The notes under the pieces: generated by a model
Told to the model about the DNA's origin: nothing
The model's input: the letters and a program-made list of their open reading frames with translations, nothing else
The model's database searches: none
Assembly (NCBI GenBank): GCA_965223325.1
Contig: CBDCWI010000002.1
Span: 3,456,001-3,520,000, forward strand
DNA length: 64,000 nt
Reading direction: 5' to 3'
From: Candidatus Multivoradales bacterium
GTDB lineage: Bacteria; Acidobacteriota; Thermoanaerobaculia; Multivoradales; Multivoraceae
Translations under genes and position numbers: made by a program
Part shown: piece after piece, positions 27,471 to 42,114 of the stretch
How positions within the stretch are numbered: the stretch's first letter is position 1
Layout of the letters: every line of letters starts with the position of its first letter

Positions 27471-27761
27471 GTGAGTGTCGTAGCAAGAAAGGAAGGCCCC
27501 CGCGGCCCTGTTCGGTATCGAGGCAGAGGGTGTCGCCCTCTCCTCAGCCTGGTCTGCACCGTCCTTGCTCTCGGAACCAGCTCCTGCTCAAGTCCAGAGC
27601 CGCCCCGCCTCAGCAGTAGGGGGTACGCAGAAGACCTCTTGTGCTCCTTGCAGTCCGCGGTCGGCCGCCCGCCGGACACGACCGGTGCTGCTCTGGAGCT
27701 TGCAGCCGGCTGTGAAGATGTAAGACGGCAGCGAAGAATCGATCTTCCATGTGGGGAGTAG
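27471..27761 (+). CDS. Lipoprotein-signal-bearing ORF, probably the frameshifted N-terminus of the next gene
   Basis: LLSLVCTVLALGTSSC lipobox; overlaps the open reading frame of the downstream sulfatase-like gene. Confidence 0.5.
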   Translation: MSVVARKEGPRGPVRYRGRGCRPLLSLVCTVLALGTSSCSSPEPPRLSSRGYAEDLLCSLQSAVGRPPDTTGAALELAAGCEDVRRQRRIDLPCGE

Positions 27762-30372
27762 GGACCGTCGACGGTCTGCCCTGCTACCCGCAGGCGTTTC
27801 AGTCGTTGTCCCGTTGGAGCTTCGGGCCGGAACAGAACCCCGCCTGAAGTTCTCTCTTCGGACTGTTTCAGGCAGCGTCAGCGATGTGGGTATCTCCATC
27901 CGGGGAGCTCGCCAAGCAAACGGATCACCGCTCGACCTCGAGACTGAGACCACTCCGGATAGTTGGCGCGACTTTGACGTCATGCTCCTAGAGACCGACT
28001 GTCCCTGCAGTCTTCGGCTCGAAGCTCATGCGACGAACGGAAAAGCAGCGACGGTTGCGGTCGCAACTCCGCGAGTCGTCTATCCGCCCGAAGGAGCCGG
28101 CTCGAAGGCCCAAAGGGACGTGGTCGTCTACCTGATCGACACCCTCCGCGCCGACCGCACCTCCGCTGCGGGCTATTCCCGTCCAACGACGCCCTTCATG
28201 GAGGAGCTTGCGGCCGAGGGGATTCTGTTCGAGAACAACTACAGCACAGCGGCGTGGACCCGGCCCGCGGTAGCCAGCCTCATGACCTCGCTCTTCCCCA
28301 GCTACCACAACACCAGCACGGACACCGGGCTTCCTCGGGGAGTCGAGACCCTCGCTGAGAGCTTCCGCGCCGCGGGCTTTTCAACCCTCGCCGTCGTCGC
28401 CAACAACCATGTGGGGCGCGCGGGGCTCGGCTTCGAACAGGGGTTCGACCAGCTGATTCAATTGTCGCTGGCACCTGCGGGGCGAATTCATGCTGCCGCA
28501 CTCGAGCACATGGATCGACTTGGGGACGAGCCGCTGTTCTTGTACATCCATACGATCGAGCCCCACAGTCCCTACGACACCCCCGACCCACTCCGGAGCA
28601 TGTTCGCGAATCCGGACTACCGTGGCCCCGTCCAGGTAGCTTCAACGCACCGGGCGACTCTGAACAAGATGACCCTCGACGGTGACGACAGAAAACACAT
28701 CAGCGATCTTTACGACGCCGGCGTGCGAGAGGCAGACGAGGGTCTCCGCCGCTTCGTGGCGGATCTCGAAAGCAGGGGGCGATTGCGCTCTACCCTTCTA
28801 GTGGTGACCTCGGACCATGGGGAAGAGCTCTACGAGCATGACGGCTGGGGGCACGGTCACCGTCTGTTCGAAGAGCAGATCCGCATACCCCTTCTCATCT
28901 GGGATCATGCGTTGTTCGATCGCCACCGCCATCGAATTCATTCGCCCACTCAGATCATCGACATCATGCCGACTCTTCTCGATTGGTTTGGAGTCGCGAA
29001 GCCGCCAGGACTTCACGGGACGCAACTGCCGCTCGAAGATGGCGGGATTTTCGCACCAGGCGGAAACCAGCGCCCGATCTTCGGTGAGGAGATTCGATAT
29101 GACGTAGATCGCCAATTGACGTCGTTTCGAATAGGTCATCGGAAGATCATCCGGCATCGTCGCCAAGGCGGAAAGTCCCTGGGCACGCTGTACTTCGACC
29201 TCAAAGCGGATCCGTCGGAACACGCAAAGTTGAGCGTCGACGAACGCCCAGAACTCGAAGAGGCCATGGACGACTTCATCCGCGAACTAGAGCGGGCAAC
29301 GAGGGCCAGCGCCCCGGAGATCGTTGTTGCGACCGATGAGATCCCTGAGCTCGCAGCGCTGGGCTACGTAGACGACCCAAGAAGAGCCTGCCTGGAGCAA
29401 GCGGGGACCGTCGCCCCTCACAGCGATATCGTCCGCCGAGCTGTGGTCTCTCCAAGTGGAAGGTGGGCTCTTTCAGCTGGATACGATCGCAACGTCGCAC
29501 TACACAGAATCGACACCAGTGGCGAGAACCCTCTCGCGCACCTCGACACGATCGAGATCAGCGACCGGAGGCTCTACACGGTGGCGTGGTCACCCGATGG
29601 CCTTTGGGCGTTAGCTGGCGGCGTTGGCGAGCGTGTTCACCTGTTTAGAGTCGACACGAGTGCAAAGCGACTGGTAGCGATCGGAGAATCCGGCGAGCAA
29701 ACGAGCCCAACACGAGATCTGGCCTGGGTCGACAAGCACACGGCAGTGATGGCTACTCAGAAGGAGCTTCGCTTCCTTGAGATCGACACTTCGTCCGGAG
29801 CCATCAGCGTAAGGTCGAGGATTCGCCCCCATGCAACATCACTCAACAGCATCGATGTCTCACCGTCTGGCAATCACCTCCTTACGACCTCCCACGACCG
29901 CACGCTCAAGTTGTTCCGGATCGACCCGCGAGCGCTGCTCTTCGAGGAGCTGGACACCTTCGCCGGGCCGCTTGATGTTCTTTATGACACGTCATGGTCG
30001 CCAAACGGAGCGCACGCGGTCCTCACCGGCTCGGTTCCGCTTGCATGGCTTCTCTCGGTCGACTCAGCAAGTGGTCGGCTCGCCCTGGTCCAGTCCGTTC
30101 AGCTTGCTGATGCTAAGAACAGGGCCATCGCTTGGGCTCCCCACGGGGGACAGATCGTGGTCGGCTCCCGAGCGCTAGAACTGACGGAGCTTCTCGCCAT
30201 TCCGGAGAACCGCTTCTTCGGCATACTCCGAGAGCCGGTCCGTCTACCCAAGCAGGAACGAGATGCCGTCTTCAGTGCGGAGTGGTCGCCCGACGGGCGC
30301 CTGCTTCTTCTTGGTCGGGCATCGGGAAAGGTCGAGCTGTTGGTGAACAAGTGCCTTCAAGAAGATGAGTAG
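27751..30372 (+). CDS. Sulfatase-like hydrolase/transferase fused to a WD40 beta-propeller
   Basis: YLIDTLRAD, WTRPAVASLMT, HTIEPHSPY, TSDHGEE, LAALGY, then repeats such as WSPDG, VSPSGNHLLTTSHDRTLKLF. Confidence 0.85.
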   Translation: MGSRDRRRSALLPAGVSVVVPLELRAGTEPRLKFSLRTVSGSVSDVGISIRGARQANGSPLDLETETTPDSWRDFDVMLLETDCPCSLRLEAHATNGKAATVAVATPRVVYPPEGAGSKAQRDVVVYLIDTLRADRTSAAGYSRPTTPFMEELAAEGILFENNYSTAAWTRPAVASLMTSLFPSYHNTSTDTGLPRGVETLAESFRAAGFSTLAVVANNHVGRAGLGFEQGFDQLIQLSLAPAGRIHAAALEHMDRLGDEPLFLYIHTIEPHSPYDTPDPLRSMFANPDYRGPVQVASTHRATLNKMTLDGDDRKHISDLYDAGVREADEGLRRFVADLESRGRLRSTLLVVTSDHGEELYEHDGWGHGHRLFEEQIRIPLLIWDHALFDRHRHRIHSPTQIIDIMPTLLDWFGVAKPPGLHGTQLPLEDGGIFAPGGNQRPIFGEEIRYDVDRQLTSFRIGHRKIIRHRRQGGKSLGTLYFDLKADPSEHAKLSVDERPELEEAMDDFIRELERATRASAPEIVVATDEIPELAALGYVDDPRRACLEQAGTVAPHSDIVRRAVVSPSGRWALSAGYDRNVALHRIDTSGENPLAHLDTIEISDRRLYTVAWSPDGLWALAGGVGERVHLFRVDTSAKRLVAIGESGEQTSPTRDLAWVDKHTAVMATQKELRFLEIDTSSGAISVRSRIRPHATSLNSIDVSPSGNHLLTTSHDRTLKLFRIDPRALLFEELDTFAGPLDVLYDTSWSPNGAHAVLTGSVPLAWLLSVDSASGRLALVQSVQLADAKNRAIAWAPHGGQIVVGSRALELTELLAIPENRFFGILREPVRLPKQERDAVFSAEWSPDGRLLLLGRASGKVELLVNKCLQEDE

Positions 30373-31916: not shown

Positions 31917-33578
31917 CTACGGCAGCCACAGGCTCCACTCGGTCGTACCTGAACTCTCGAAGTCGTCGAAGAAGAGCGGCTCCCGACCACACCATCGATC
32001 TGCTCGCAGAGCACCGACGCGTGTACGCCAGGTTGAACCTGTCTCGGCGAAGTACTGGCTTGTGAAGTAGAACGTGCAGTCATCGACCGGGTCGACGACC
32101 ATGGACGATACTTCGCCCCATTCGGCGGTCAGGGAGTTGGAACCGGTTCCGGCAAGAAGGGTCGCCTCGGGGCTGAACGAGCTTTCGCTGGCACGGCGTG
32201 TCGCGGAATCGATTCGAGGAAAGATGGCGCTGCTCGTGGTGCTATAACCGATGGCCATGTTTCCCGCTCCGTCGAGTGCGAGGGAGGCGAGGGTGCGGTC
32301 GTGTCCGTCACCGGGGTCGTGCGTACCTTCCGTATGGAGGCTCCAGCCGGCACCAGTCTTCCGGAGCTCGAACCAGTGTGGTGCAGCGCCCGACTCTCCG
32401 CTCCCACCTCCCACGGTGAAGACTCCGGCCAGGGCGTCGTGGTCGGCATATCGCCGAAACACGAGCCGAGAAGTCGGGTGGCCGCTTGCCAGTGCATTCA
32501 GCCGCTGGTCGGTACCTCTTTGGCGCAGGCAGCTCAAGCCTGAAGGACAGACTCCAGGCTGGTACGGATTGAGGTCGACCTGGCCGATCCTCGTCCACGT
32601 CGCGTTCGCGGGATTCGCGAAGTCGGGCACGAACTCGAAGAGTCTAAGGCGAGGGGGTACAACGGTCTCGCCGTAGGACTCACCCTCGAGCGGAAGGTAG
32701 AAAAGGCCTGGGGTCTCGACCGCAGGCGCAGCCCCGTCGAGATCTGCGGGTCTGGGGAAGCGGAGCGGCTCGCAGATCTTGTTGTACATTGCGTCGGTGC
32801 CCGCGACCATCGCTTTCCGATCCAGAGCGTAGACGGCGCGGATCCAGACGGGCTGCTCCTCATCGCTGTCTTCCTTGAGAGTGGCGTAGTAAGCACTTGG
32901 CCACACTGACAACTCGATGGCTGCGATGTCTACGACTCTCGGGAGTTCGTAGAGCGAGTACGCCCCCGCCGGGTCCGATGTCTGCGACACCGCAACGCAC
33001 AGAAGCTCTTGCTCACGGCGATTATCCCAGTCCGGAATGTCGATGTAGTTGAAACCGGCATGTCCAAGAACCCAGCGATCGGCCATCGGGTCCCAATTCA
33101 CCGTTGGTTCCCCTGCAGAGGTCGTGCAAGGACCGGTCGCCCAGAGATCACTCAGCGAAAAGGGCCCGACGAGAAGCTCCCCCGTCTTCGAATAGATCGC
33201 GACGCCTTCTGGGCTGACTACCTGAACGTAGTGGTTAGGCCCGACGTCACCCCGAGGGTCGGGCGTAGGGCACTCTACGCATGTCCCCTCCGCGCTCATC
33301 CCCTCCCACGAAAAGGGTCGGCCTGCGCGGACTCCGCGGCGGGCAGTTTCGAAGTCCGGTTCGAGATCAACGAGGGGCGAACCGGCACCTTCAAGCGCGC
33401 GCATCGACGGGAGCGTGTCCACGCGCGGGCTGACCTTAACGGAAAGCAGAAATCCACCGCACGGGTGAGGGTGGTTTGCCGATGCACTGCCGACGGCCAA
33501 AGCCAGCGCGAGGATGGCCGCGCCCGATGTCCGCCCGGTTCGGGAAGAGGGCTGACGCTTGGAGAGAAACCGTGACAT
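31917..33578 (-). CDS. Secreted protein of unknown function (likely beta-propeller) with C-terminal PLFFDDFESSGTTEWS tail
   Basis: Signal peptide, PDPRGDVGPNHYVQVV, DRWV, CVAVSQTSDP, VDPVDDCTFYFTSQY; terminal tail. Confidence 0.75.
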   Translation of the reverse strand: MSRFLSKRQPSSRTGRTSGAAILALALAVGSASANHPHPCGGFLLSVKVSPRVDTLPSMRALEGAGSPLVDLEPDFETARRGVRAGRPFSWEGMSAEGTCVECPTPDPRGDVGPNHYVQVVSPEGVAIYSKTGELLVGPFSLSDLWATGPCTTSAGEPTVNWDPMADRWVLGHAGFNYIDIPDWDNRREQELLCVAVSQTSDPAGAYSLYELPRVVDIAAIELSVWPSAYYATLKEDSDEEQPVWIRAVYALDRKAMVAGTDAMYNKICEPLRFPRPADLDGAAPAVETPGLFYLPLEGESYGETVVPPRLRLFEFVPDFANPANATWTRIGQVDLNPYQPGVCPSGLSCLRQRGTDQRLNALASGHPTSRLVFRRYADHDALAGVFTVGGGSGESGAAPHWFELRKTGAGWSLHTEGTHDPGDGHDRTLASLALDGAGNMAIGYSTTSSAIFPRIDSATRRASESSFSPEATLLAGTGSNSLTAEWGEVSSMVVDPVDDCTFYFTSQYFAETGSTWRTRVGALRADRWCGREPLFFDDFESSGTTEWSLWLP

Positions 33579-33869
33579 AAAGGCCGAAAAGGATGAGAAC
33601 CCAAGGGCAAGGGGACCCGCCTGGTCGCCCGCTAGAGTTTATCAGGCCACTGTTCTCTCAACACCGCCGGTTAGAGGCAGGCGTACGGTCCAGCCGATCC
33701 GTCGTCCAACTCAAGCCCCCCTGGGTACCGGCAGGGTTGTTCCACCTTGGGCACCCGACGAGCGCTGCCGCCGGTCTCAGTTACTCGCGTCTTCTCTCGC
33801 TGGGCTTTTTCGAGCACCCGAGGCCTAGCTCATGACGACACCCCCGGGCGTCTATTGACTCCCTACGAA

Positions 33870-35279
33870 CTAGTCCTCGTCGACGTAGCCGAGGGCTTCG
33901 AGCTGCTCGCGGACCTCGTCGGGCATGGTTGCGACATCGCGGAGCTTCGAAGCCAAGCCGCGGCGCTCCTTTCGCAGTCGATCAATCGTCTCTAGGTGCT
34001 CTGCGGCACCAGCAGGTTCCCCGGAGACGAGTTCACCGTTCAAGAGGTTGTAGGTCGTCTTCGAGCCAACGCGGGTGTCCCACACCACGTGTCGCGGTTC
34101 CGGACTGAGGGAGGACACTGCCATCAGGCCGCCGTAGGAGGAGTAGGAAACCCTTGTGCCCCCCTGGCGTGATGTCCCATCACAGATCGAACGAACCCCG
34201 CACTGTCCATCCCAGGCCTTCTCGGCAGGCACCTCCGCGATCGCCGCCAGAACGGGCGCGATGTCGACCTGCGGACACAGGCCATCTTCTACAACGCCCG
34301 TCGGCTCCCACGAACGGTGATAGAGAAGCGGAACTTTGACCAGTTCTGGCTCGAGACCTTTTCCGTGCCCCAAGCGACCGTGCTCCAGGAAAAGGTCGCC
34401 GTGGTCTCCGGTGACGACAACAACGAAGCGCTCGCTAGAGGTCTCAGCGAGCTGCACAACCCTTTCGACAAGGGAGTCCACGTAGCGTATCCCCGCATCG
34501 TAGAGGTCAACCATGTATTGGAGGTCGGTCTCTGAAACGCGCTCCGGCGGAACACCGTTGCGATAGCGATCCACCCCCTTCGCACCGACAAACATCTCGC
34601 GAAACTCGCGCGGCGGCCAGTAGGGATTGTGTACATCCATGAAGTGGAGGTACGCGAACCAGGGTCGCTGGGGCGGATCTCGCTGCGTCCAGGCCTCGAA
34701 GGCTCGCACGACCGTTTCACCCTTCGCATATGCGATCTTCTTGCGGCGCCCCTCCTCACGATGGCTGTCGAGCTCCAGCTGGGCAACCTCGAACAGCTCC
34801 GGGTAGCCCGAGCCGTCGGCCATGTGAGGGTTCGTCAGCACCGCGAACGTCTCGTAGCCTGCGCTGGCGAATGCTCCGGGGAGGGTCTCGGAGATCGGGA
34901 CTAAGGACGAACGCCGCTCGGTGCCTGAGGAGGTGGCGACCACCGGGGGAGGCGACATACTGGTCAGCAGGGCAGCGGTCGAGAGGAAGGTCTGAGAGCC
35001 ATGGGAGAGCCCGACGCGACAGCTGACGCTCCGTGAGGCTAGCTGGTCGAGGAAGGGGCTGACGGGACGCTGATACCCGGCAAACCCGAGGTGGTCGCCA
35101 CGAAGCGCATCGATATTGATGAGGAGGATGTTCGGGGCCCTCTTCTCGCCCGTTTCTTCGCCCACTGGGTTCGAAGCAGACGAATGGCCAGCTGGGTCCG
35201 GAGAGCACGAGCCGAGCGTGACCGCCGCAGAGACGACCAGGACAACGAGAATCTCGTGGCATCCGCGGGGAATGGTCAT
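33870..35279 (-). CDS. Sulfatase-like lipoprotein
   Basis: LGSC lipobox, PNILLINIDALRGDH, HFMDVHNPY, TGDHG, EQLEALGYV. Confidence 0.85.
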   Translation of the reverse strand: MTIPRGCHEILVVLVVSAAVTLGSCSPDPAGHSSASNPVGEETGEKRAPNILLINIDALRGDHLGFAGYQRPVSPFLDQLASRSVSCRVGLSHGSQTFLSTAALLTSMSPPPVVATSSGTERRSSLVPISETLPGAFASAGYETFAVLTNPHMADGSGYPELFEVAQLELDSHREEGRRKKIAYAKGETVVRAFEAWTQRDPPQRPWFAYLHFMDVHNPYWPPREFREMFVGAKGVDRYRNGVPPERVSETDLQYMVDLYDAGIRYVDSLVERVVQLAETSSERFVVVVTGDHGDLFLEHGRLGHGKGLEPELVKVPLLYHRSWEPTGVVEDGLCPQVDIAPVLAAIAEVPAEKAWDGQCGVRSICDGTSRQGGTRVSYSSYGGLMAVSSLSPEPRHVVWDTRVGSKTTYNLLNGELVSGEPAGAAEHLETIDRLRKERRGLASKLRDVATMPDEVREQLEALGYVDED

Positions 35280-35419
35280 TTGGCTGGGCTCCGGCTCGTT
35301 GGTTTCGCAAAGAGGCAAGAACCTAACAGCTCGAAGCTACACGTTCCAAGCCGAAGCGCCCGAGTCTGAGGAGCCCTGCCAATGGAGTACCGCAGCTGGC
35401 AGCACACGGGTACAAACGG

Positions 35420-35443
35420 AAGGGCCACCCGAGGGTGGCCCTT
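35420..35443. terminator. Intrinsic terminator hairpin downstream of the 35491-36138 gene
   Basis: AAGGGCCACCC-GA-GGGTGGCCCTT perfect inverted repeat. Confidence 0.75.
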
Positions 35444-35490
35444 TCTATTGCCAGACTTCGCAGTCTCGCGTTCTTCTGGCTAGGCGCTGC

Positions 35491-36138
35491 TCAGGGGCTG
35501 AGCGTGCGAAACGACACGAAATCGTCGAAGTAGTGTGAGCCGACCGTACCGGCATCCACACTGCTCGCCAAGAGACCGACCTTCACATTCTTGACGCCCT
35601 GGGAGGCGGTGGGGATTTCCGTCTGCTCCCGGATGGTCGCATCGTCGACCATGATCCGCAGCAGACCATCCGTGGCACCGGCTGACGCTGCCGCGCGGAA
35701 CTCGATCGTGATCTTGTGGGCCTGGTTCGGCTGCAGGTCGATGACGCCAGTCTTGCGGCGCTTGGTTCCGCCCGTCGCCTGGTACAGGGCGCGGATGTCG
35801 TAGCCGCTGCCGCCAGCCTTGCGGCGGAGCTGAGCCGAAACCACGCGATTCCCGTTGTTGGAGTCGTTCGTGGTGCTGAAGATGATGTGACGGGCGCCGA
35901 TGTCCATCGTCATGTTGTTGACGTTGAACATGAAGGAGGCGGAGTAGACCGGCTCCTGGGCCGGGGTGTCGTCCTGGACGAAAGCATTCGTCTGGGATCC
36001 GTCTGCGGTTACCTCGAGGCCGAAGTTCCCGGCCATTGCAGCGTTGCCGTTGACGTCAAGGGACGAGTCCGCAACTGCTGCCCCGGCAAGACAGAGCAGG
36101 CCCGAAAGGGCGATGGTCATAGTTCTCTGAAGTTTCAC
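35491..36138 (-). CDS. Secreted single-domain beta-sandwich (ConA/LamG-like jelly-roll) protein
   Basis: SD AAGGAG + GTG, signal peptide ending AVA, strong codon bias, ends GSHYFDDFVSFR; fold is inferred. Confidence 0.75.
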   Translation of the reverse strand: MKLQRTMTIALSGLLCLAGAAVADSSLDVNGNAAMAGNFGLEVTADGSQTNAFVQDDTPAQEPVYSASFMFNVNNMTMDIGARHIIFSTTNDSNNGNRVVSAQLRRKAGGSGYDIRALYQATGGTKRRKTGVIDLQPNQAHKITIEFRAAASAGATDGLLRIMVDDATIREQTEIPTASQGVKNVKVGLLASSVDAGTVGSHYFDDFVSFRTLSP

Positions 36139-36199
36139 GTTTCTTCTCCTTTGGGCTTCAGCCCGGGCGGGCCGGGTCCTTGAATCCATTGTTGGGTTG

Positions 36200-36691
36200 T
36201 TACTGTTGGGTTGAGTCTTCCGAGATCGTCAGCCGCGCCGCCGGGCCCAGCTCGCCGTCTTCGAAGTCAAAGGTCGAGAGTGGCACCGCCTCTACTCCTG
36301 CAACTGTTGGGTTGGCATCCGGACCCCCTGCCTCTATCAGCGAATCAAACGCACCTCCCGCGGCGGCGAGAATGCCTGAGAGTGCGAGCACACAGGCTGC
36401 TGCGGCCAGAGGAATTCTGGCCTTGGCCGTCACCTCGGCGGATGGAGCCACGGTCGCCAGGTCCCAACTCACGGCTTCGACCAGCTCGCGGCATTCGGCA
36501 CAGGAAGCAACGTGCCGCTCCACTGATTCAGAAACACATGATTTGCCATTTCTTGCGCCGAGTGCGTGCTCGACAAGGGCGTCTGCATCAGGATGCTGGT
36601 CGAGCGCCTTGAGCACCTGAGCGAAGGCCGTCTCGGCACCTTGGGGGACAGCGTTTGCGGCTTTGTCGAAGTCTAGGGTTGAGTGACTCAT
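36200..36691 (-). CDS. Zinc-binding (zf-HC2/ZAS) transmembrane anti-sigma factor
   Basis: HP..DAL, HVASCAEC (HxxxCxxC), one TM, short external tail with PLSTFDFEDG; downstream of an ECF sigma. Confidence 0.82.
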   Translation of the reverse strand: MSHSTLDFDKAANAVPQGAETAFAQVLKALDQHPDADALVEHALGARNGKSCVSESVERHVASCAECRELVEAVSWDLATVAPSAEVTAKARIPLAAAACVLALSGILAAAGGAFDSLIEAGGPDANPTVAGVEAVPLSTFDFEDGELGPAARLTISEDSTQQ

Positions 36692-36731
36692 CTGGGGTTC
36701 CTCTGGCCTCGGGCTCCCTGCCCGGTTGCTC

Positions 36732-36760
36732 TATAGTCGAGCGCCCGTGGCTTTTGTTAC
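36732..36760 (-). promoter_or_regulatory. Candidate ECF-sigma promoter
   Basis: GTAAC-N16-CGACTATA on the minus strand, about 40 bp upstream of the anti-sigma start. Confidence 0.6.
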
Positions 36761-36859
36761 CGACTTTCTTGAGGTGCCCACAAGACGTCCCGATTCTCGG
36801 CCTTCCCCGTGCGAGAAGCGTAGCCGCCGGTCGACCCCCCGGTCGTTGCCGCTCTCAGA

Positions 36860-37408
36860 CTACTTGGCGCCTGGACCCTCTTCAAACAATCGCGCCCGTA
36901 CCCCGAGGGCAGCCTTCCGACACCGGCTGATTCGCACCCTCAATGCCCCCTCTTTGATGCCCAGGGCGGCTGCCATCTGCGTGTAGTCCTGACCCAGCGC
37001 GACCCGGCGCAGCAGCTCCAGGCACTCGGGCTTCAGCTCCTCCTCCAGCGCCCGGAGCAGGCGGTCGGTGTCGGCGGCACCGAGTTCTGCGGCTCGAGGG
37101 TCCTCGCCCGCGATCTCCGTTGCCTCATCACCAAGGGACTCGCTGGGCCTGCGACCCCGAAGCCTCACGCGGTCGATGCACTTGTAGTGCGCGATGCGGC
37201 GGGCGTAGCTCGCCAAGGTGCTTTCGCCGCGAAAGCGACCCTCTCGAACCGCAATCAGTAGGGCCGAAAGGGAGTCCTGCTCGACGTCTTCGAGGTCGCC
37301 TGCGGCAAGGCTGTGGGCGGAGAAGGCGACGCGGATGGCTCGCCGTACCGCCGCGACAACCTCGGCGTCACCGGCGAGGAAGCGCGCGCCGTCGCTCTTC
37401 TCGGTCAT
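36860..37408 (-). CDS. ECF RNA polymerase sigma factor
   Basis: Region 2 DLEDVEQD..FRGESTLASYARRIAHYKCIDRVR; region 4 YTQMAAALGIKEGALRVRISRCR; ATGA overlap with upstream gene. Confidence 0.9.
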   Translation of the reverse strand: MTEKSDGARFLAGDAEVVAAVRRAIRVAFSAHSLAAGDLEDVEQDSLSALLIAVREGRFRGESTLASYARRIAHYKCIDRVRLRGRRPSESLGDEATEIAGEDPRAAELGAADTDRLLRALEEELKPECLELLRRVALGQDYTQMAAALGIKEGALRVRISRCRKAALGVRARLFEEGPGAK

Positions 37409-40400
37409 GCACTTGCCCGGCCCGCAGCCCTCGACTGCTGTCCGAGGACGCGGAGTTCGGAGGCTGCGGCTGCTTCGATGGTGAAGCGGGCAGCGATTCG
37501 CTGCCCGCGAGCTGCGAGTAGCTTGCGCAGGTCCCCGTCCTCGACCAGGCGCTGGAGGGCAGACAGGCAAGCACTCCGATCGGCTGTGTCAACGACCAGA
37601 GCGGTGTCGCCATCGATCGCGTACTCACTGGCGCCGCCAGCCTTCGGAACGATGACGGCGCAGCCGCAGGCCATCGCCTCGAGGCCAGTGCGGCCGAAAG
37701 CCTGGTAGTGCGAAAGGTCGACGAACACGTCGGAGCGTTGCAGGAGCCCGGCCACGCCCTCCCGTGTCATAACGCCGCATCGTTCGAATGTGCCGTCGGT
37801 AGCAGCCTCATAGATCGGGTCATCGACTGGCAAGCCAAACGTCAGAACTTCTACGCCCGAAGGGTACTCGCGAGCGATCGCGCGAAGTACCTCGAGCGTG
37901 CCTTCGGCGTTGCGCCGCGGAGTGCTCGGCCGGAGCATCGCAGCAACACGGACCGCTCCGGTGGCTGGCTCGCGGCCCCGGGGGTTGTAGACCGAGTGGT
38001 CGATGCTGGGCGTCACCTTGGCCACCGGAACGCCATGCTCCTCGAACACCTTGGCGCGAATCCAATCGGTCTTGGCGAACAGCTGCGACCGCGGGACCCG
38101 AGAGTAGGACAGCCGCGCCTCGCGCTCGAGATTCGGATCGTGCGCCACGATCCTCGGTTCGTAGTCCTGGACGTAGTACCCCAAACCGAGGTCAGGAAAG
38201 CTGCGCGACAGCTGCTCGAGGAGCTTGACGGAGGTAAAAATCGTGGCGACGGCATGGGTCGCCTGGCGTGCGAGCCGGGCCAACTCATCAATCCCCTGAA
38301 AGCCGACGAAAAGGTCCGCCGGAACAGATGGGTAGTTGTCGAGGAACCAATGGCGGTGCTGCTTGGGAACCGCGATGCGTGCCGCAGCCCCTAGCGCGCG
38401 CATGCCCAGCGCCTCCTGAACGATCGAATGCACGCCGCCGCCGCCGCGACTGACCGGAAGAATAAAGAGAACCGACATGGCCTCGGGATCTGGGTCGACA
38501 CCTGCTCCGGCGATGGGCGCTGCACGATCGATTCGGCCGAGGGCCTCCTGAATCCGAGCTCGCACCTTCGCCATCTCAGGGTTGTGGCGCATGAACTCGC
38601 TCGCCTGCTTGATCACCTCTGCGCCGTGCTTCTCGTCGAAGGCCTGACGGCTGCTGCTGGCGAGCTCGCGCCGGCGCTCGTGGCTGTAGCTCTTCGATTT
38701 GGCGTGGAAGACGAAGACGTCGTCGACCACCGCAAGTTCGAATCCTTCTGCCCGCGCGCGCAGGCAGTAGTCGTTCTCTTCGCCGTAGCCACGCGGGAAG
38801 GACTCTTCGTCGAGCAACCCGATCCGGTCGAGAAGCTCGCGCCGGATCATGAAGCAGAAGCCGTTGAGAAACGGCATACGCGGCCGTGCACGGGCCGACG
38901 CCCGCTTCACCACGTCGTCCATTCCGTTGACACCGAGACCCTCGGGCAACTCGTTGACGGCCCAGTCGCCCGCTTCGTCGAAGCGCTTGGGTACCGACTG
39001 GTAGCTCGCCGCGTTCGACAGTGGCCCGACGACGCCCAGCTTGCCGCTCGAAGCACCGGCTTCCACCATCCGATCGAGCCAGCCGAAAGGCACAACGACG
39101 TCGCTGTTGAGCAATACCACCCAGTCGGCCTCGCTCGCTCGCAGGCCACGATTAGCGGCCCGGGTGTAGCCGGTGGCCCGGTCGCTTCGCAGCAGTTGGC
39201 TCTCGTGCCTGGTTGCAAAACCTCGCAGGTACTCGGCCGTTTCCATGTCCGAACCGTCATCGACGATATAGAGCGTGTACTGTCGCCGGGTGTTGCGAAC
39301 CAGCGATTCGAGACAAGCTGTCACATCCTCGAGGGCGTTGTGAACACATACCACGACGTCGACGGTGAGTTCGTCGACCGACCTGGCGCCGGCGATGCTT
39401 TCCGGCGCAACTCTGGGCCCGGGAGCAGTGGCTGTAGATGTGGATGTGGATGTGGATGTGGATGCGGGCGCCACGCTCAGCGGGCGAAAAAGGCCTTGGA
39501 CCCGATTGCGAAGGCCCCTGAGCTTCCCGATCAGAAGCCAGCTGCGCGACTCGTAGATCGCCCGCAGCTGCTGCTCGAGCCGGCGCTCTTTCCCCTTTCT
39601 GCGCTCATAGGCTTTTGAGTACTCGCTCTTCTCGCGACGCACCTTGCGAAGCGCGCGGGCAGCGAGCCGGTGACGGTCGATGTACTCCTCGAGTTCGCGC
39701 TTCTGTCTCTGGAGCTTCTCGTTGGCCGCGGCCAGGGCGGCTCTGAGTTCGCGCTCGTCCTCTCGGCGGCTGGCAAGCTCGTCGGCCAGCTGTCGCAAGA
39801 TGCGCCGCATATCGGTATCGCGAACCGCTATCTCCTTGGAGTCGGCCGCCATCTGCTCGCGCCGCTGCCGTTCGCGCTGACGGCCGATTTCAACCCGAAT
39901 CCTTTCGGACTCGATGGTTTCGATAATCGCCTCGCGCGTTTCCCTGCTATCGAGCCGTTCGGCAAAGGCTGCCAGTGCCGGCGATGTACGAAGGCGCTCC
40001 TCGGGCAGGAGGACGGCGAGGCCATGAAGGCCACGCACGACCCGGAACCGAATGTCGCACTGTGTTCCCGCCAGGAAATCCTCGACCGCGGTGAGGACAC
40101 CGTTCCTCTCGCCGCCTTCGACTGCCGCGTGGTGAAGGTGACCGTTAAGACCGCCGGCATCAACCAGTAAGGGATGGTCCGGGTGCACACCGCGCCGGGC
40201 AAAGGGTTGCCTGTCGAGTTCTGGAATGCGGTCGGGCTCGTAGTAGAGGTCTCGCCGCCCGTAGGGCCAGCCGACGTCATGGAGCAAGACCACCGGAAAC
40301 GGAACGCCTGCGCGCTGGCTGATCTCGTGCAGAAGGCGAAGCTCGTGAAAGACGGTGTACCAGTTGTGGTCTCCGTCGACCAGCGCCACGTCACACGCCG

Positions 40401-40647
40401 GGAGACCGGGAAGGACGTCGTGGCTCGTGCCTCGGTGAAAAACGAGCGCCGGGCCCCACTCCTGCTGCCACTCGTCGACGTCGTACTTCGGCAGCGGGTC
40501 GATGACGTGCAGCGTTGCGGCGTTCTGGCGGCAGTATCCGAGCAGCTCCCGCGTTTGCAGACCGCCGTCAGAACCGATTTCAACCAGAACTTTGGGCGAC
40601 GTCGCCTCGAGCAGCGGCTCGGTGACGGTCTTCCAGAACCTTCTCAT
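37405..40647 (-). CDS. Multidomain glycan synthase: methyltransferase - coiled coil - GT2 - GT4
   Basis: VEIGSDGG..DGDHNWY..LHD (MTase), E/R/L-rich heptads ending SRSW, VVCVHNA..VDDGS..LLNSD..GYGEENDY (GT2), AFGRTGLEAMACG (GT4). Confidence 0.88.
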   Translation of the reverse strand: MRRFWKTVTEPLLEATSPKVLVEIGSDGGLQTRELLGYCRQNAATLHVIDPLPKYDVDEWQQEWGPALVFHRGTSHDVLPGLPACDVALVDGDHNWYTVFHELRLLHEISQRAGVPFPVVLLHDVGWPYGRRDLYYEPDRIPELDRQPFARRGVHPDHPLLVDAGGLNGHLHHAAVEGGERNGVLTAVEDFLAGTQCDIRFRVVRGLHGLAVLLPEERLRTSPALAAFAERLDSRETREAIIETIESERIRVEIGRQRERQRREQMAADSKEIAVRDTDMRRILRQLADELASRREDERELRAALAAANEKLQRQKRELEEYIDRHRLAARALRKVRREKSEYSKAYERRKGKERRLEQQLRAIYESRSWLLIGKLRGLRNRVQGLFRPLSVAPASTSTSTSTSTATAPGPRVAPESIAGARSVDELTVDVVVCVHNALEDVTACLESLVRNTRRQYTLYIVDDGSDMETAEYLRGFATRHESQLLRSDRATGYTRAANRGLRASEADWVVLLNSDVVVPFGWLDRMVEAGASSGKLGVVGPLSNAASYQSVPKRFDEAGDWAVNELPEGLGVNGMDDVVKRASARARPRMPFLNGFCFMIRRELLDRIGLLDEESFPRGYGEENDYCLRARAEGFELAVVDDVFVFHAKSKSYSHERRRELASSSRQAFDEKHGAEVIKQASEFMRHNPEMAKVRARIQEALGRIDRAAPIAGAGVDPDPEAMSVLFILPVSRGGGGVHSIVQEALGMRALGAAARIAVPKQHRHWFLDNYPSVPADLFVGFQGIDELARLARQATHAVATIFTSVKLLEQLSRSFPDLGLGYYVQDYEPRIVAHDPNLEREARLSYSRVPRSQLFAKTDWIRAKVFEEHGVPVAKVTPSIDHSVYNPRGREPATGAVRVAAMLRPSTPRRNAEGTLEVLRAIAREYPSGVEVLTFGLPVDDPIYEAATDGTFERCGVMTREGVAGLLQRSDVFVDLSHYQAFGRTGLEAMACGCAVIVPKAGGASEYAIDGDTALVVDTADRSACLSALQRLVEDGDLRKLLAARGQRIAARFTIEAAAASELRVLGQQSRAAGRASA
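39437..39464. repeat. (GATGTG)4+ in-frame microsatellite encoding an STSTSTST linker
   Basis: GATGTGGATGTGGATGTGGATGTGGATG. Confidence 0.85.
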
Positions 40648-40656
40648 GCCACGGTT

Positions 40657-42114
40657 CTACTCGACATAGCCGAGCGCCTCGAGTTCGCGGCGCTCCTCTT
40701 CGGAGTAGTCGCGTCCTGTATTGTCGCGGACCGTCACCGACGGCTTCCCCATTTCTTGATGGATGAACGCGAGGTCGCGCTTGAAAGCTGTTTCGAGATC
40801 TTGATCCCCTCCGGGGAGTCCCAGTAGTTGCTGACCATCCATGTGCGCCAGTTGTGAGGCATGGGGAACCTCATACTGGAAAATCACTTGCCGATCCTCG
40901 CGCAGCAGCGTGACTCCCGAAACCCAGGTCGGGTCGTGCCGAACATGCTCGGAGATCGCGAAAGGGGGATCTCCGTTGTCAGGGGTCGGTGGAGCCAGGA
41001 AGAGAGCCGTTTGGTCGACACCGTCGAGACCATCCGGAACTTCTATGTCGGCAAGGGTTCCGAGGGTGGGGAACAGATCGATCTGCTCGATGATGGTCTC
41101 CTCGAATCGCGGCCCGGCGCCCATGTTTCGAGCCCGAAGCGCCACGGGCAAGCGCACGACCAGGGGTATGCGCACGACTTCTTGGTGAAGTGAATGGCCG
41201 TGCGCCCAGCCACCGCGGTCATAGAGCTCTTCGCCGTGATCGGCCGTCACGATGATCAGAAAGTCGTCGAACTGCCCGGCGTCCCGCAACGTTTCGAAGA
41301 GGTGCGCAACATGGTCACCGTCGAAATAGGCGAGTTCTGTGTCATAAAGCGCCCGCGCCTCTTCAATGTCAGCGGGAGTGAGATCGCTCCGCTTCTTGTA
41401 GGTGAGCACGCTGAAGTCGACCGTGCTGTCGGTCGTCGGAAAACGGTCCCGGTAATGCGCGGCCTTGCCCTTCTTGATCACGTAAGGGTCGTGCGGCCCG
41501 ATGAAGTGAACGTAAGCGAAAACCTTGTCGGCTTCGTCGAGGTCGCTGAACCACTTTCGAAAGTGGCGTGCCGCTGGCTTGAGGCGGCCGTAGACTTCGA
41601 ACCCTCGGCCGAAGCCTTGTTGTTCCGAGATGTGCGAGTTTTCGACAAAGCCAGCGGTCCTCCAGCCCGCATCTGTGAACGCCTGGCCAAGGCTCGGCAC
41701 GTCGCTCGGAAAGCTCACCGTGCGCTCCTCTTTCGTGCCATCAGGAAGCACCATGTGCCGGCCGACGGTGACGCCGTGGTGGCGCGGGTAGAGCCCCGAA
41801 AAAAGCGAAGCGACCGAGGGCTTGGTCCAGTTCGCCTGGGCAAATGCGCGCGTAAAGACGACTCCCTCGGCTGCCAACGCGTCGATTGTCGGAGTGGTTG
41901 GCCGCGGATAGCCATACACGCCGAAGTGATCTGGCCGCGCGCAGTCGATCGACACCAGGAGGATTTTCTCGACCGGGCTCTCGATTTGGGCAGCCGGCTC
42001 TACCATCCCCCGCCCTTCTCCCGCAGGCGGCGCCGGCGAGCAGGCCAGCGGGAGCGAGGCCATCGCAACCAACAGGCCAGTGGACCGCGGGCGGCTGAAG
42101 AAGCGGGGGATCAC
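40657..42114 (-). CDS. Sulfatase-like lipoprotein
   Basis: PLAC lipobox, ILLVSIDCARPDH, WTKPSVASLFSG, HFIGPHDPY, TADHGEE, ELEALGYVE. Confidence 0.87.
   Translation of the reverse strand: MIPRFFSRPRSTGLLVAMASLPLACSPAPPAGEGRGMVEPAAQIESPVEKILLVSIDCARPDHFGVYGYPRPTTPTIDALAAEGVVFTRAFAQANWTKPSVASLFSGLYPRHHGVTVGRHMVLPDGTKEERTVSFPSDVPSLGQAFTDAGWRTAGFVENSHISEQQGFGRGFEVYGRLKPAARHFRKWFSDLDEADKVFAYVHFIGPHDPYVIKKGKAAHYRDRFPTTDSTVDFSVLTYKKRSDLTPADIEEARALYDTELAYFDGDHVAHLFETLRDAGQFDDFLIIVTADHGEELYDRGGWAHGHSLHQEVVRIPLVVRLPVALRARNMGAGPRFEETIIEQIDLFPTLGTLADIEVPDGLDGVDQTALFLAPPTPDNGDPPFAISEHVRHDPTWVSGVTLLREDRQVIFQYEVPHASQLAHMDGQQLLGLPGGDQDLETAFKRDLAFIHQEMGKPSVTVRDNTGRDYSEEERRELEALGYVE

Follow-up and report, generated by a model that had tools for sequence, protein, structure and literature searches.

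The window analyzed here is a stretch of 64,000 nucleotides from the genome of Candidatus Multivoradales bacterium (Acidobacteriota), in which a gene for a small secreted protein, hereafter the acceptor or gene 3, lies near a gene for an exported protein, gene 4, that ends in a 19-residue tag. Comparison of both proteins with their relatives, together with structural modelling, suggests that they hold the two parts of one split jelly-roll domain, in which the strand carried by the tag would complete the separately secreted acceptor in trans and, in this way, dock the tagged proteins. We assign to this reading a probability of about 0.6. The split point of the domain, the co-occurrence of its parts across genomes, and their modelled fit were computed, and from these we infer the binding itself.

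A C-terminal tag on exported proteins

The C terminus of gene 4 is EPLFFDDFESSGTTEWSLWLP. A loose version of this tail motif gives 156 matches in the genome (6.69 Mb in two contigs, with 46,187 open frames in six-frame translation), 76 of them within 25 residues of the stop. Moreover, a profile built from 35 canonical tails finds 73 matches among the 46,187 frames at an independent E-value (i-E) of 0.01 or less, of which 68 end at most six residues from the stop. The first-pass annotation of this DNA, made from the letters alone, had described such a tail pattern on other secreted proteins, and this is borne out far beyond chance. In an alignment of 21 tails, conservation is restricted to approximately the final 19 columns (LFxDxFESGxTxxWSxxxP), with F, E, and W invariant and another F, a D, and a P present in at least 90% of the tails, and no hydrophobic stretch is seen. 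The resulting consensus of the tag is LFxD[DG]FESGxTxxWSxxxP, then a stop codon.

A crude hydrophobicity rule detects a signal-peptide-like start in 56 of the 68 tailed frames. Also, a comparison of 41 tailed proteins with Pfam shows unrelated extracytoplasmic families, being subtilase (four proteins), beta-helix (five), DUF1501 (three), M36, M14, GH9, purple acid phosphatase, CotH, and others. The tag is a genome-wide C-terminal signature on about 70 Sec-exported proteins, among them peptidases (subtilases and others), phosphatases, a GH9 cellulase, beta-helix proteins, and giant proteins that resemble adhesins. Five 40-residue tails were without a match in NCBIfam, and the tail of gene 4 was without one in Pfam, in both cases at E ≤ 10.

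A few strong matches to the tag are internal in this genome, in a 1413-residue frame (contig C1, minus strand) and a 1138-residue frame (contig C2, plus strand). In one of these frames the tag is followed by about 330 residues that include YD/RHS-like sequence, and in the other by about 160 residues. The internal tag may be a processing or junction point in both cases.

The acceptor lacks the strand carried by the tag

The signal peptide of the acceptor comprises residues 1 to 23 and ends in AVA, leaving a mature part (residues 24–215) with DSSLDVNGNAAMAGNFGLEV at its N terminus and HYFDDFVSFRTLSP at its C terminus. The protein is single-copy in this genome, has a Sec signal peptide only, with no anchor of its own, and gives no match in Pfam or NCBIfam even at E ≤ 10. 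A lipoprotein nature was considered and rejected, since the residues preceding Cys16 are not lipobox-like when judged by eye.

A word-based search with the acceptor gives only four relatives. A profile search of 1.84 billion representatives, seeded with gene 3 and other stand-alone forms, gives 2833 at E ≤ 0.001 and 172 at E ≤ 1e-30. This jelly-roll domain family of 2833 representatives is absent from Pfam and NCBIfam, and its nearest Atlas clusters are labelled "hypothetical protein", the commonest phyla in these clusters being Acidobacteriota and Pseudomonadota. The match of the acceptor to the family covers the whole domain, starting at the second strand and ending with the last one (Y-x-D-x-F), and in other organisms the uncut domain belongs to large, often tandem, surface-type multidomain proteins.

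We examined 270 copies of the domain, corresponding to the best 150 of the 2833 representatives plus the seeds. Among the embedded copies with at least 30 upstream residues, 187 of 214 are preceded by the tag motif ([IL]FxDGFESGxLSxWS...TDGG, then DLSV), and many of the remaining 27 have visibly degenerate versions of it. By contrast, in 43 of the 44 copies found in proteins of at most 260 residues, the signal peptide leads directly into N-SLDVN..AAM.G.FGLEV, which is the second strand, and a single protein of 255 residues (P0107) has the first one. The alignment is in register, the columns of the strand being occupied by residues in the fused forms and by gaps in the stand-alone ones. This agrees with the first-pass annotation, which had described embedded domains with the strand and stand-alone domains without it and had proposed the profile check that gave these counts. 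Also, all 16 stand-alone frames taken from related genomes consist of a signal peptide and then the domain, with the strand absent. The tails end with WSxxxP, immediately ahead of the TDGG loop at which the mature acceptors start, and therefore tail and acceptor correspond to one domain cut at this loop.

In a tree, the stand-alone forms make one clade of 44 tips (support 0.964) that includes the acceptor and lies apart from 218 cis copies, the sampling of which is biased by the seeding of the profile from stand-alone proteins. P0107 is nested inside this clade and reads as a tail, ending in ...WSKVRP, that is fused to an acceptor, an arrangement suggestive of a secondary re-fusion of the two parts. 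Over its full length, the acceptor aligns with 42 other stand-alone members at a mean column identity of 32%; the columns without variation hold G, G, P, F, G, D, S, and R, neither Lys nor Asn being among them, and the clade is kept with these residues across distant lineages.

Variant acceptors are found in three genomes (L040 and L041 in G010, L042 in G008, and L043 in G005), where a Cys-containing insert of about 100 residues separates the signal peptide and first acceptor strand from the rest of the domain. These genomes are poor in tails, having 7, 2, and 1, respectively.

Tail and whole domain in homologs of gene 4

Gene 4 has 526 relatives at E ≤ 1e-10. Of the 120 homologs listed, 12 (counting the query) have the tail at their end, and another one (P0186) carries at this position the tag motif and the whole domain in cis. 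The other listed homologs have in this place a type IX secretion system (T9SS) domain (PF18962), SLH, PKD, Big_1, or similar modules, and therefore the tail takes a position otherwise used by C-terminal modules for anchoring or sorting. A further homolog of 583 residues (P0237) has two tandem tails at its end.

Tails and acceptors co-occur across genomes

Tails were counted in 41 related genomes with a DNA pattern (D-[DG]-F-E, six codons, W, five codons, stop) that registers only the commonest tail length. In the genome of the window this pattern has 35 matches versus none for a reversed control, which matches once over all 41 genomes. The number of tails per relative genome reaches 92, and all ten genomes of genus g11 have none. 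Tails are present in 21 of the 41 genomes, and each of these 21 has a match to the domain, so that tails occur in 21 of 24 genomes with a domain match versus 0 of 17 without. Moreover, 18 of the 19 genomes with at least four tails have a strand-less acceptor frame. A joint occurrence of acceptor and tailed proteins had been set as a check when the system was first proposed, and it is borne out by these numbers. In a sample of 201 genomes from the phylum, four or more tails were found only in the genome of the window (G000), in three genomes of the same order, and in G194. The last one has 76 tails and a stand-alone acceptor, and its sister genus G174 and G062 have neither.

Structural models of the acceptor domain and of its complex with the tail

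An AlphaFold model of gene 3 based on four sequences was too poor to use, with a predicted local distance difference test (pLDDT) value of 61.8. For P0107, with 51 sequences, a pLDDT above 90 is reached over the domain. A Foldseek comparison of this model gives concanavalin-A-like jelly rolls with a probability of 1.00 and template modelling (TM) scores of 0.42 to 0.47, the neighbors being PL7 and PL18 lyases, ulvan lyase, galectins, and the lectin-like domains of clostridial neurotoxins. A sequence search of the PDB finds no relative (best E 0.39), the likeness being at the level of the fold only. At this level, the modelled acceptor domain can be classed as a two-sheet concanavalin-A-like jelly roll.

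The complex was modelled with the mature acceptor (43-row alignment) and the last 40 residues of gene 4 (21-row alignment). The interaction prediction score from aligned errors (ipSAE) is 0.78, with values of 0.78, 0.83, and 0.75 in the runs, versus 0.20 for the best of three controls; the agreement of contacts is at least 97%, and the pLDDT of the partner is at least 67. In the model, tail residues 21 to 26 (PLFFDD) run antiparallel to residues 207 to 211 of the acceptor (FVSFR), and W35–W38 of the tail contact V54/Q55. The tag contacts acceptor residues 204 to 212 and 50 to 59, and the interface includes the first mature residues of the acceptor (24–27) and the last residues of the tail (35–40). 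The tail of gene 4 is thus placed next to the YFDDFVSFR/YFDDFVSF strand, matching the predicted insertion beside the YFDDF strand. The model shows the tail as the structural equivalent of the missing strand, which is no demonstration of binding in the cell.

Proposed mechanism and alternative explanations

That the tail is the missing first strand and completes the acceptor in trans had been the central claim of the first-pass annotation. Every computational test that was run supports it: the split point, the co-occurrence, the homolog P0186 with the domain in cis, the re-fused form P0107 nested among stand-alone proteins, and the model of the complex. In the proposed mechanism, one jelly-roll domain would be divided between genes, with the tag as strand 1 of a concanavalin-A-like domain and the acceptor gene supplying the rest, its mature N terminus starting where the tag hands over. 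Outside the cytoplasm, the tag would insert antiparallel to the last strand of the acceptor, YFDDFVSFR, and the tryptophan of the tag would pack on the AFVQDD strand. The fold would then be completed in trans, and every tagged protein would gain the same module, which may retain or dock its clients at the envelope or matrix as a lectin-like module.

Docking at the envelope or matrix is favored because strand-less acceptors are found fused to SLH (PF00395, 2.3e-11) in G032 (L039:1685-3367) and to fn3/Ig parts in G015 (L011:1390-2955) and G010 (L016:805-2949), and because the uncut domain occurs in surface-type proteins. In G014, a strand-less acceptor has another C-terminal extension (L019:1135-2283). 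By analogy with these proteins, retention or docking at the envelope would be preferred over its main rival, in which the tag also binds the acceptor, the latter acting as a periplasmic chaperone or export adaptor instead of a docking module. Such a protein would cap or escort the tagged proteins during their passage through the outer membrane, or retain them for quality control. The Sec signal peptide of the acceptor and its lack of an anchor would fit this role, as would the true secretion signals (T9SS, PF18962) that homologs of gene 4 bear at the position of the tail; also, the strict C-terminal placement of the tag and its terminal proline resemble a sorting signal. However, the uncut domain is elsewhere a permanent and often tandem part of mature multidomain proteins, the SLH and fn3 fusions indicate a fixed location, and no secretion-system gene is conserved beside the acceptor in 19 loci. 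We consider a chaperone or adaptor to be unlikely.

Several observations weigh against completion in trans. In the model of P0107, the N-terminal strand is left unplaced, with a pLDDT of about 50 to 67, which does not bear out the geometry of the strand in cis. The score of the complex may reflect the knowledge that the model has of the uncut domain family, and the ipSAE mark, reached by 58 of 80 solved complexes and by 2 of 110 mismatched pairs, is only roughly calibrated for our case, where own alignments were used. The related genomes are kin, and their co-occurrence counts overstate independence. Moreover, one genome with 70 tails (G035, 97% complete) has no strand-less acceptor that could be found, two others (G014, 79% complete, and G040) have strand-less acceptors and no tails of the searched length, and G039 has cis copies only. 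For G035 (with loci such as L038 and L064), a frame of 460 residues has an internal tag motif and then a weak, cis-like match to the domain (E 1.3e-4 and 8.3e-6). A strict DNA pattern for the FRTL.P end of acceptors finds none in this genome, although it also misses the known acceptors of G012 and G036. In this case, either the acceptor was missed or is divergent, or the genome is a true exception.

The same genomes (G035 on one side, G014 and G040 on the other) would be expected if some other machinery, such as a protease, a transpeptidase, or a secretion gate, recognized the tail as a signal for sorting or processing. The likeness of the tail to strand 1 would then reflect an origin by truncation, and the stand-alone protein would serve another purpose, for example, as a lectin or a lyase, as the PL7, PL18, and ulvan lyases among the nearest folds could suggest. 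Nonetheless, this explanation does not account for 43 of 44 stand-alone proteins missing exactly the residues that the tails carry, for the distribution of tails among genomes with and without the domain (21 of 24 versus 0 of 17), or for the confident modelled fit in comparison with the controls. In addition, the tail has no hydrophobic segment, and no sorting model of NCBIfam or Pfam matches it at E ≤ 10. A signal for other machinery is, in our view, even less probable than a chaperone.

Finally, the tails could be decaying remnants of lost domains and the acceptor an N-terminally eroded domain, with nothing functional in either; domain truncation is the likely origin of both parts, with the cis form of P0186 as the ancestral state, but about 70 tails keep the same length, the invariant F, E, and W, and F, D, and P at 90% or more, tens of tails per genome (up to 92) are found in many relatives, and the acceptor clade is conserved in distant lineages, so that this reading is already close to refuted.

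Organization of the locus and candidate sensing by the sigma/anti-sigma pair

The order of genes on the minus strand is glycosyltransferase, extracytoplasmic function (ECF) sigma factor, anti-sigma factor, acceptor, sulfatase, and gene 4 (Table 1). The sigma, anti-sigma, acceptor, and client genes had been annotated as four co-oriented genes, and all of them were recovered in the places given for them. They are not contiguous, as a co-oriented sulfatase gene, omitted in that annotation, separates the acceptor from gene 4. The gaps are 168 nt between the sigma and anti-sigma genes and 61 nt between the anti-sigma and acceptor genes. The acceptor had also been credited with a strong Shine-Dalgarno sequence and its own terminator, and both are found. 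Its GTG start lies 7 nt past AGGAG, and a hairpin 48 nt 3' of its stop has a 10-bp GC-rich stem with a folding energy of -33 kcal/mol (z -4.57), none of 200 shuffles folding equally well. A scan with promoter and terminator consensus sequences found no promoter and missed this hairpin. The ATG of the sigma gene overlaps the TGA of the glycosyltransferase gene (ATGA, 37405-37408), and thus the sigma gene may be expressed from the glycosyltransferase transcript.

Table 1. Features of the acceptor locus; positions are those of the window.
Feature	Positions	Strand	Basis or remark
Multidomain glycosyltransferase, 1080 aa, methyltransferase/GT2/GT1 fusion	37405-40647	-	Upstream of the sigma gene
ECF-type sigma factor, 182 aa	36860-37408	-	TIGR02937 sigma70-ECF match
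Membrane anti-sigma factor, 163 aa	36200-36691	-	HxxxCxxC, one membrane-like segment, external tail
FDFEDG in the external tail of the anti-sigma factor, possible degenerate tag copy	36254-36271	-	Read from the sequence
Shine-Dalgarno sequence of the acceptor, AGGAG, 7 nt ahead of its GTG codon	36146-36150	-	Read from the sequence
Acceptor (gene 3), secreted jelly-roll protein, 215 aa, without the first strand of the domain family	35491-36138	-	Profile, alignment, models
Terminator-like hairpin, 10-bp stem, then UCCGUUUGU	35420-35443	-	Fold z -4.57
Sulfatase gene between the acceptor and gene 4	33870-35318	-	PF00884 at 4.9e-33
Gene 4, tailed client, exported, 553 aa	31917-33578	-	No Pfam family
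C-terminal 19-residue tag of gene 4, LFFDDFESSGTTEWSLWLP, read as a donor strand	31920-31976	-	Tail profile, 25.9 bits

The neighborhood is rich in sulfatases, with two further genes at 27751-30372 (plus strand) and 40657-42114 (minus strand), and one of the sulfatases is fused to WD40 repeats. In 7 of 19 loci, the acceptor has sulfatase-family genes in its vicinity. The system may be linked to sulfated glycans of the envelope or matrix, and the sulfatase is best described as its neighbor, being a candidate member at most.

The sigma factor matches TIGR02937 with 47.4 bits (cut-off 42.9) over residues 22 to 165, and its Pfam matches stay below gathering (Sigma70_r2, 22.1 versus 24; r4_2, 19.5 versus 25.7). 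It is a short protein with regions 2 and 4 only and with an anti-sigma factor encoded downstream, which corresponds to the ECF (group 4) class. The anti-sigma factor, a candidate zinc-binding (ZAS) protein, has in its N-terminal part HVASCAEC (HxxxCxxC) at residue 60, a membrane-like segment at residues 95 to 115, and an external tail of 48 residues that contains STFDFEDGELG; its zf-HC2 match of 15.4 bits is below the gathering value of 22.2, which its ortholog in L033 passes with 33.6 bits.

In the first-pass annotation, conservation of the triad of sigma, anti-sigma, and acceptor was set as a check, and a mimic of the donor strand was proposed on the anti-sigma factor. The triad is not generally conserved. 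An ECF sigma gene lies upstream of the acceptor in 4 of 19 loci from 17 genomes (the window, L021, L033, and L036), with anti-sigma orthologs beside the acceptors of L021, L033, and L036, and a local sigma profile detects no ECF gene beside the acceptors of other loci. Visual inspection of the DNA ahead of 17 acceptor genes gave no common promoter motif, and sigma-70-like hexamers were read by eye before the acceptor in L028, L030/L032, and L031. Given these hexamers and the presence of the pair in 4 of 19 loci, ECF control would be a lineage-specific addition at most.

The mimic strand fares better in two of the orthologs than in the window. The FDFEDG of the window scores -1.3 bits against the tail profile, which is not significant, and the L021 copy is also below zero, whereas recognizable copies of the tag are found in the other two anti-sigma factors, L036 ending with two (12.4 bits) and L033 having one (10.8 bits). 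Moreover, all four acceptor-linked anti-sigma factors share HxxxCxxC, one membrane-like segment, and an external tail of 48 to 73 residues with F[ED][SDG]G, a pattern that occurs in 0.44% of random 50-residue windows, although it was defined after the data were seen and the four proteins are orthologs. The L033 and L036 proteins (L033:4285-4938 and L036:6994-7755) have two HxxxCxxC motifs each, and that of L036 has in addition an FESG on the cytoplasmic side.

These sequences point weakly to a sensing of the acceptor by the sigma/anti-sigma pair. In this more speculative part of the mechanism, the pair would be co-transcribed with the acceptor in this lineage, and the short external tail of the anti-sigma factor would be a weak decoy tag that reports free acceptor. 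Such a gauge is conceivable, and we regard it as doubtful. The wider scheme, in which about 70 exoproteins would recruit one abundant shared module and the cell would gauge the free acceptor through the decoy strand and adjust its synthesis by way of the ECF factor, is somewhat more doubtful than the gauge taken alone. If it held, a 19-residue strand per protein would replace the encoding of a 190-residue domain each time.

Comparison with known systems

Strand complementation is known from pili and tag docking from cellulosomes, whereas a genome-wide strand tag for a jelly roll appears undescribed: literature searches at the level of abstracts gave nothing on the motif, the split domain, or a system of this kind. 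If the proposed reading is true, it would represent an unrecognized route to equip or dock exported proteins, in which dozens of proteins per genome, in many lineages, use a domain that is encoded in pieces by different genes and put together again outside the cell. A large family of "hypothetical proteins" would also acquire a function, as would a recurrent C-terminal motif that is passed over by annotation pipelines.

In chaperone-usher pili, an incomplete Ig-like pilin without its last strand is completed by a strand from another polypeptide. A Gram-positive case related to donor-strand complementation is outlined in a preprint, at abstract level (bioRxiv 10.64898/2026.10.17.759780). The system proposed here would be similar in that a short strand from another protein completes a partial beta-sandwich. 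However, the fold in our case is a concanavalin-A-like jelly roll that misses its N-terminal strand, the donor strands sit at the C termini of about 70 unrelated enzymes, and there is one acceptor and no polymer. It does not belong among chaperone-usher systems, as the only neighbors conserved in the 19 loci are sulfatases and the sigma gene, with no chaperone or usher. A true case would extend donor-strand complementation beyond pili.

Cellulosomes combine cohesin-dockerin docking, scaffoldins anchored by SLH, and SigI/RsgI pairs with anti-sigma sensors. RsgI is treated, according to the abstract, in PMC12203970. As in the cohesin-dockerin system, many secreted hydrolases would have here one C-terminal docking tag for a common receptor module, this receptor is fused to SLH in G032, and an alternative sigma/anti-sigma pair is placed beside the system. 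Nonetheless, dockerins are domains of about 70 residues that fold autonomously with calcium and attach to a complete cohesin, whereas the 19-residue strand would complete an incomplete fold. No dockerin or cohesin match is found in the acceptor, gene 4, or the 41 tailed proteins, which places the system outside this class.

C-terminal sorting signals consist of a signature with a membrane helix and basic residues or of a beta-sandwich domain of about 80 residues. The tag resembles the T9SS C-terminal domain, PEP-CTERM, LPXTG, and GlyGly-CTERM in being one C-terminal signature on dozens of exported proteins. It differs from them in its length of 19 residues and in lacking both a membrane segment and a basic end, so that it falls outside these families, and its partner appears to be a soluble protein and not an enzyme.

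In the sigma-E pathway (DegS/RseA, AlgW/MucE), a PDZ protease reads C-terminal peptides of client proteins. AlgW is treated, at abstract level, in PMC8545111. The proposed sensing would be similar in that an ECF sigma factor is governed via short C-terminal peptide motifs in the envelope. Unlike in that pathway, the peptide would be part of the anti-sigma factor itself and would be recognized by a jelly-roll protein.

Finally, as in SpyTag/SpyCatcher and split GFP, a peptide corresponds to one strand of a beta-domain and the catcher to the remainder. A covalent bond of the Spy type was considered and rejected, as the acceptor has no invariant Lys or Asn. Those pairs are man-made, whereas the tag and acceptor would be natural and in genome-wide use and, if they do bind, could provide a natural peptide tag and binder pair for protein engineering, the binder being a protein of about 20 kDa.

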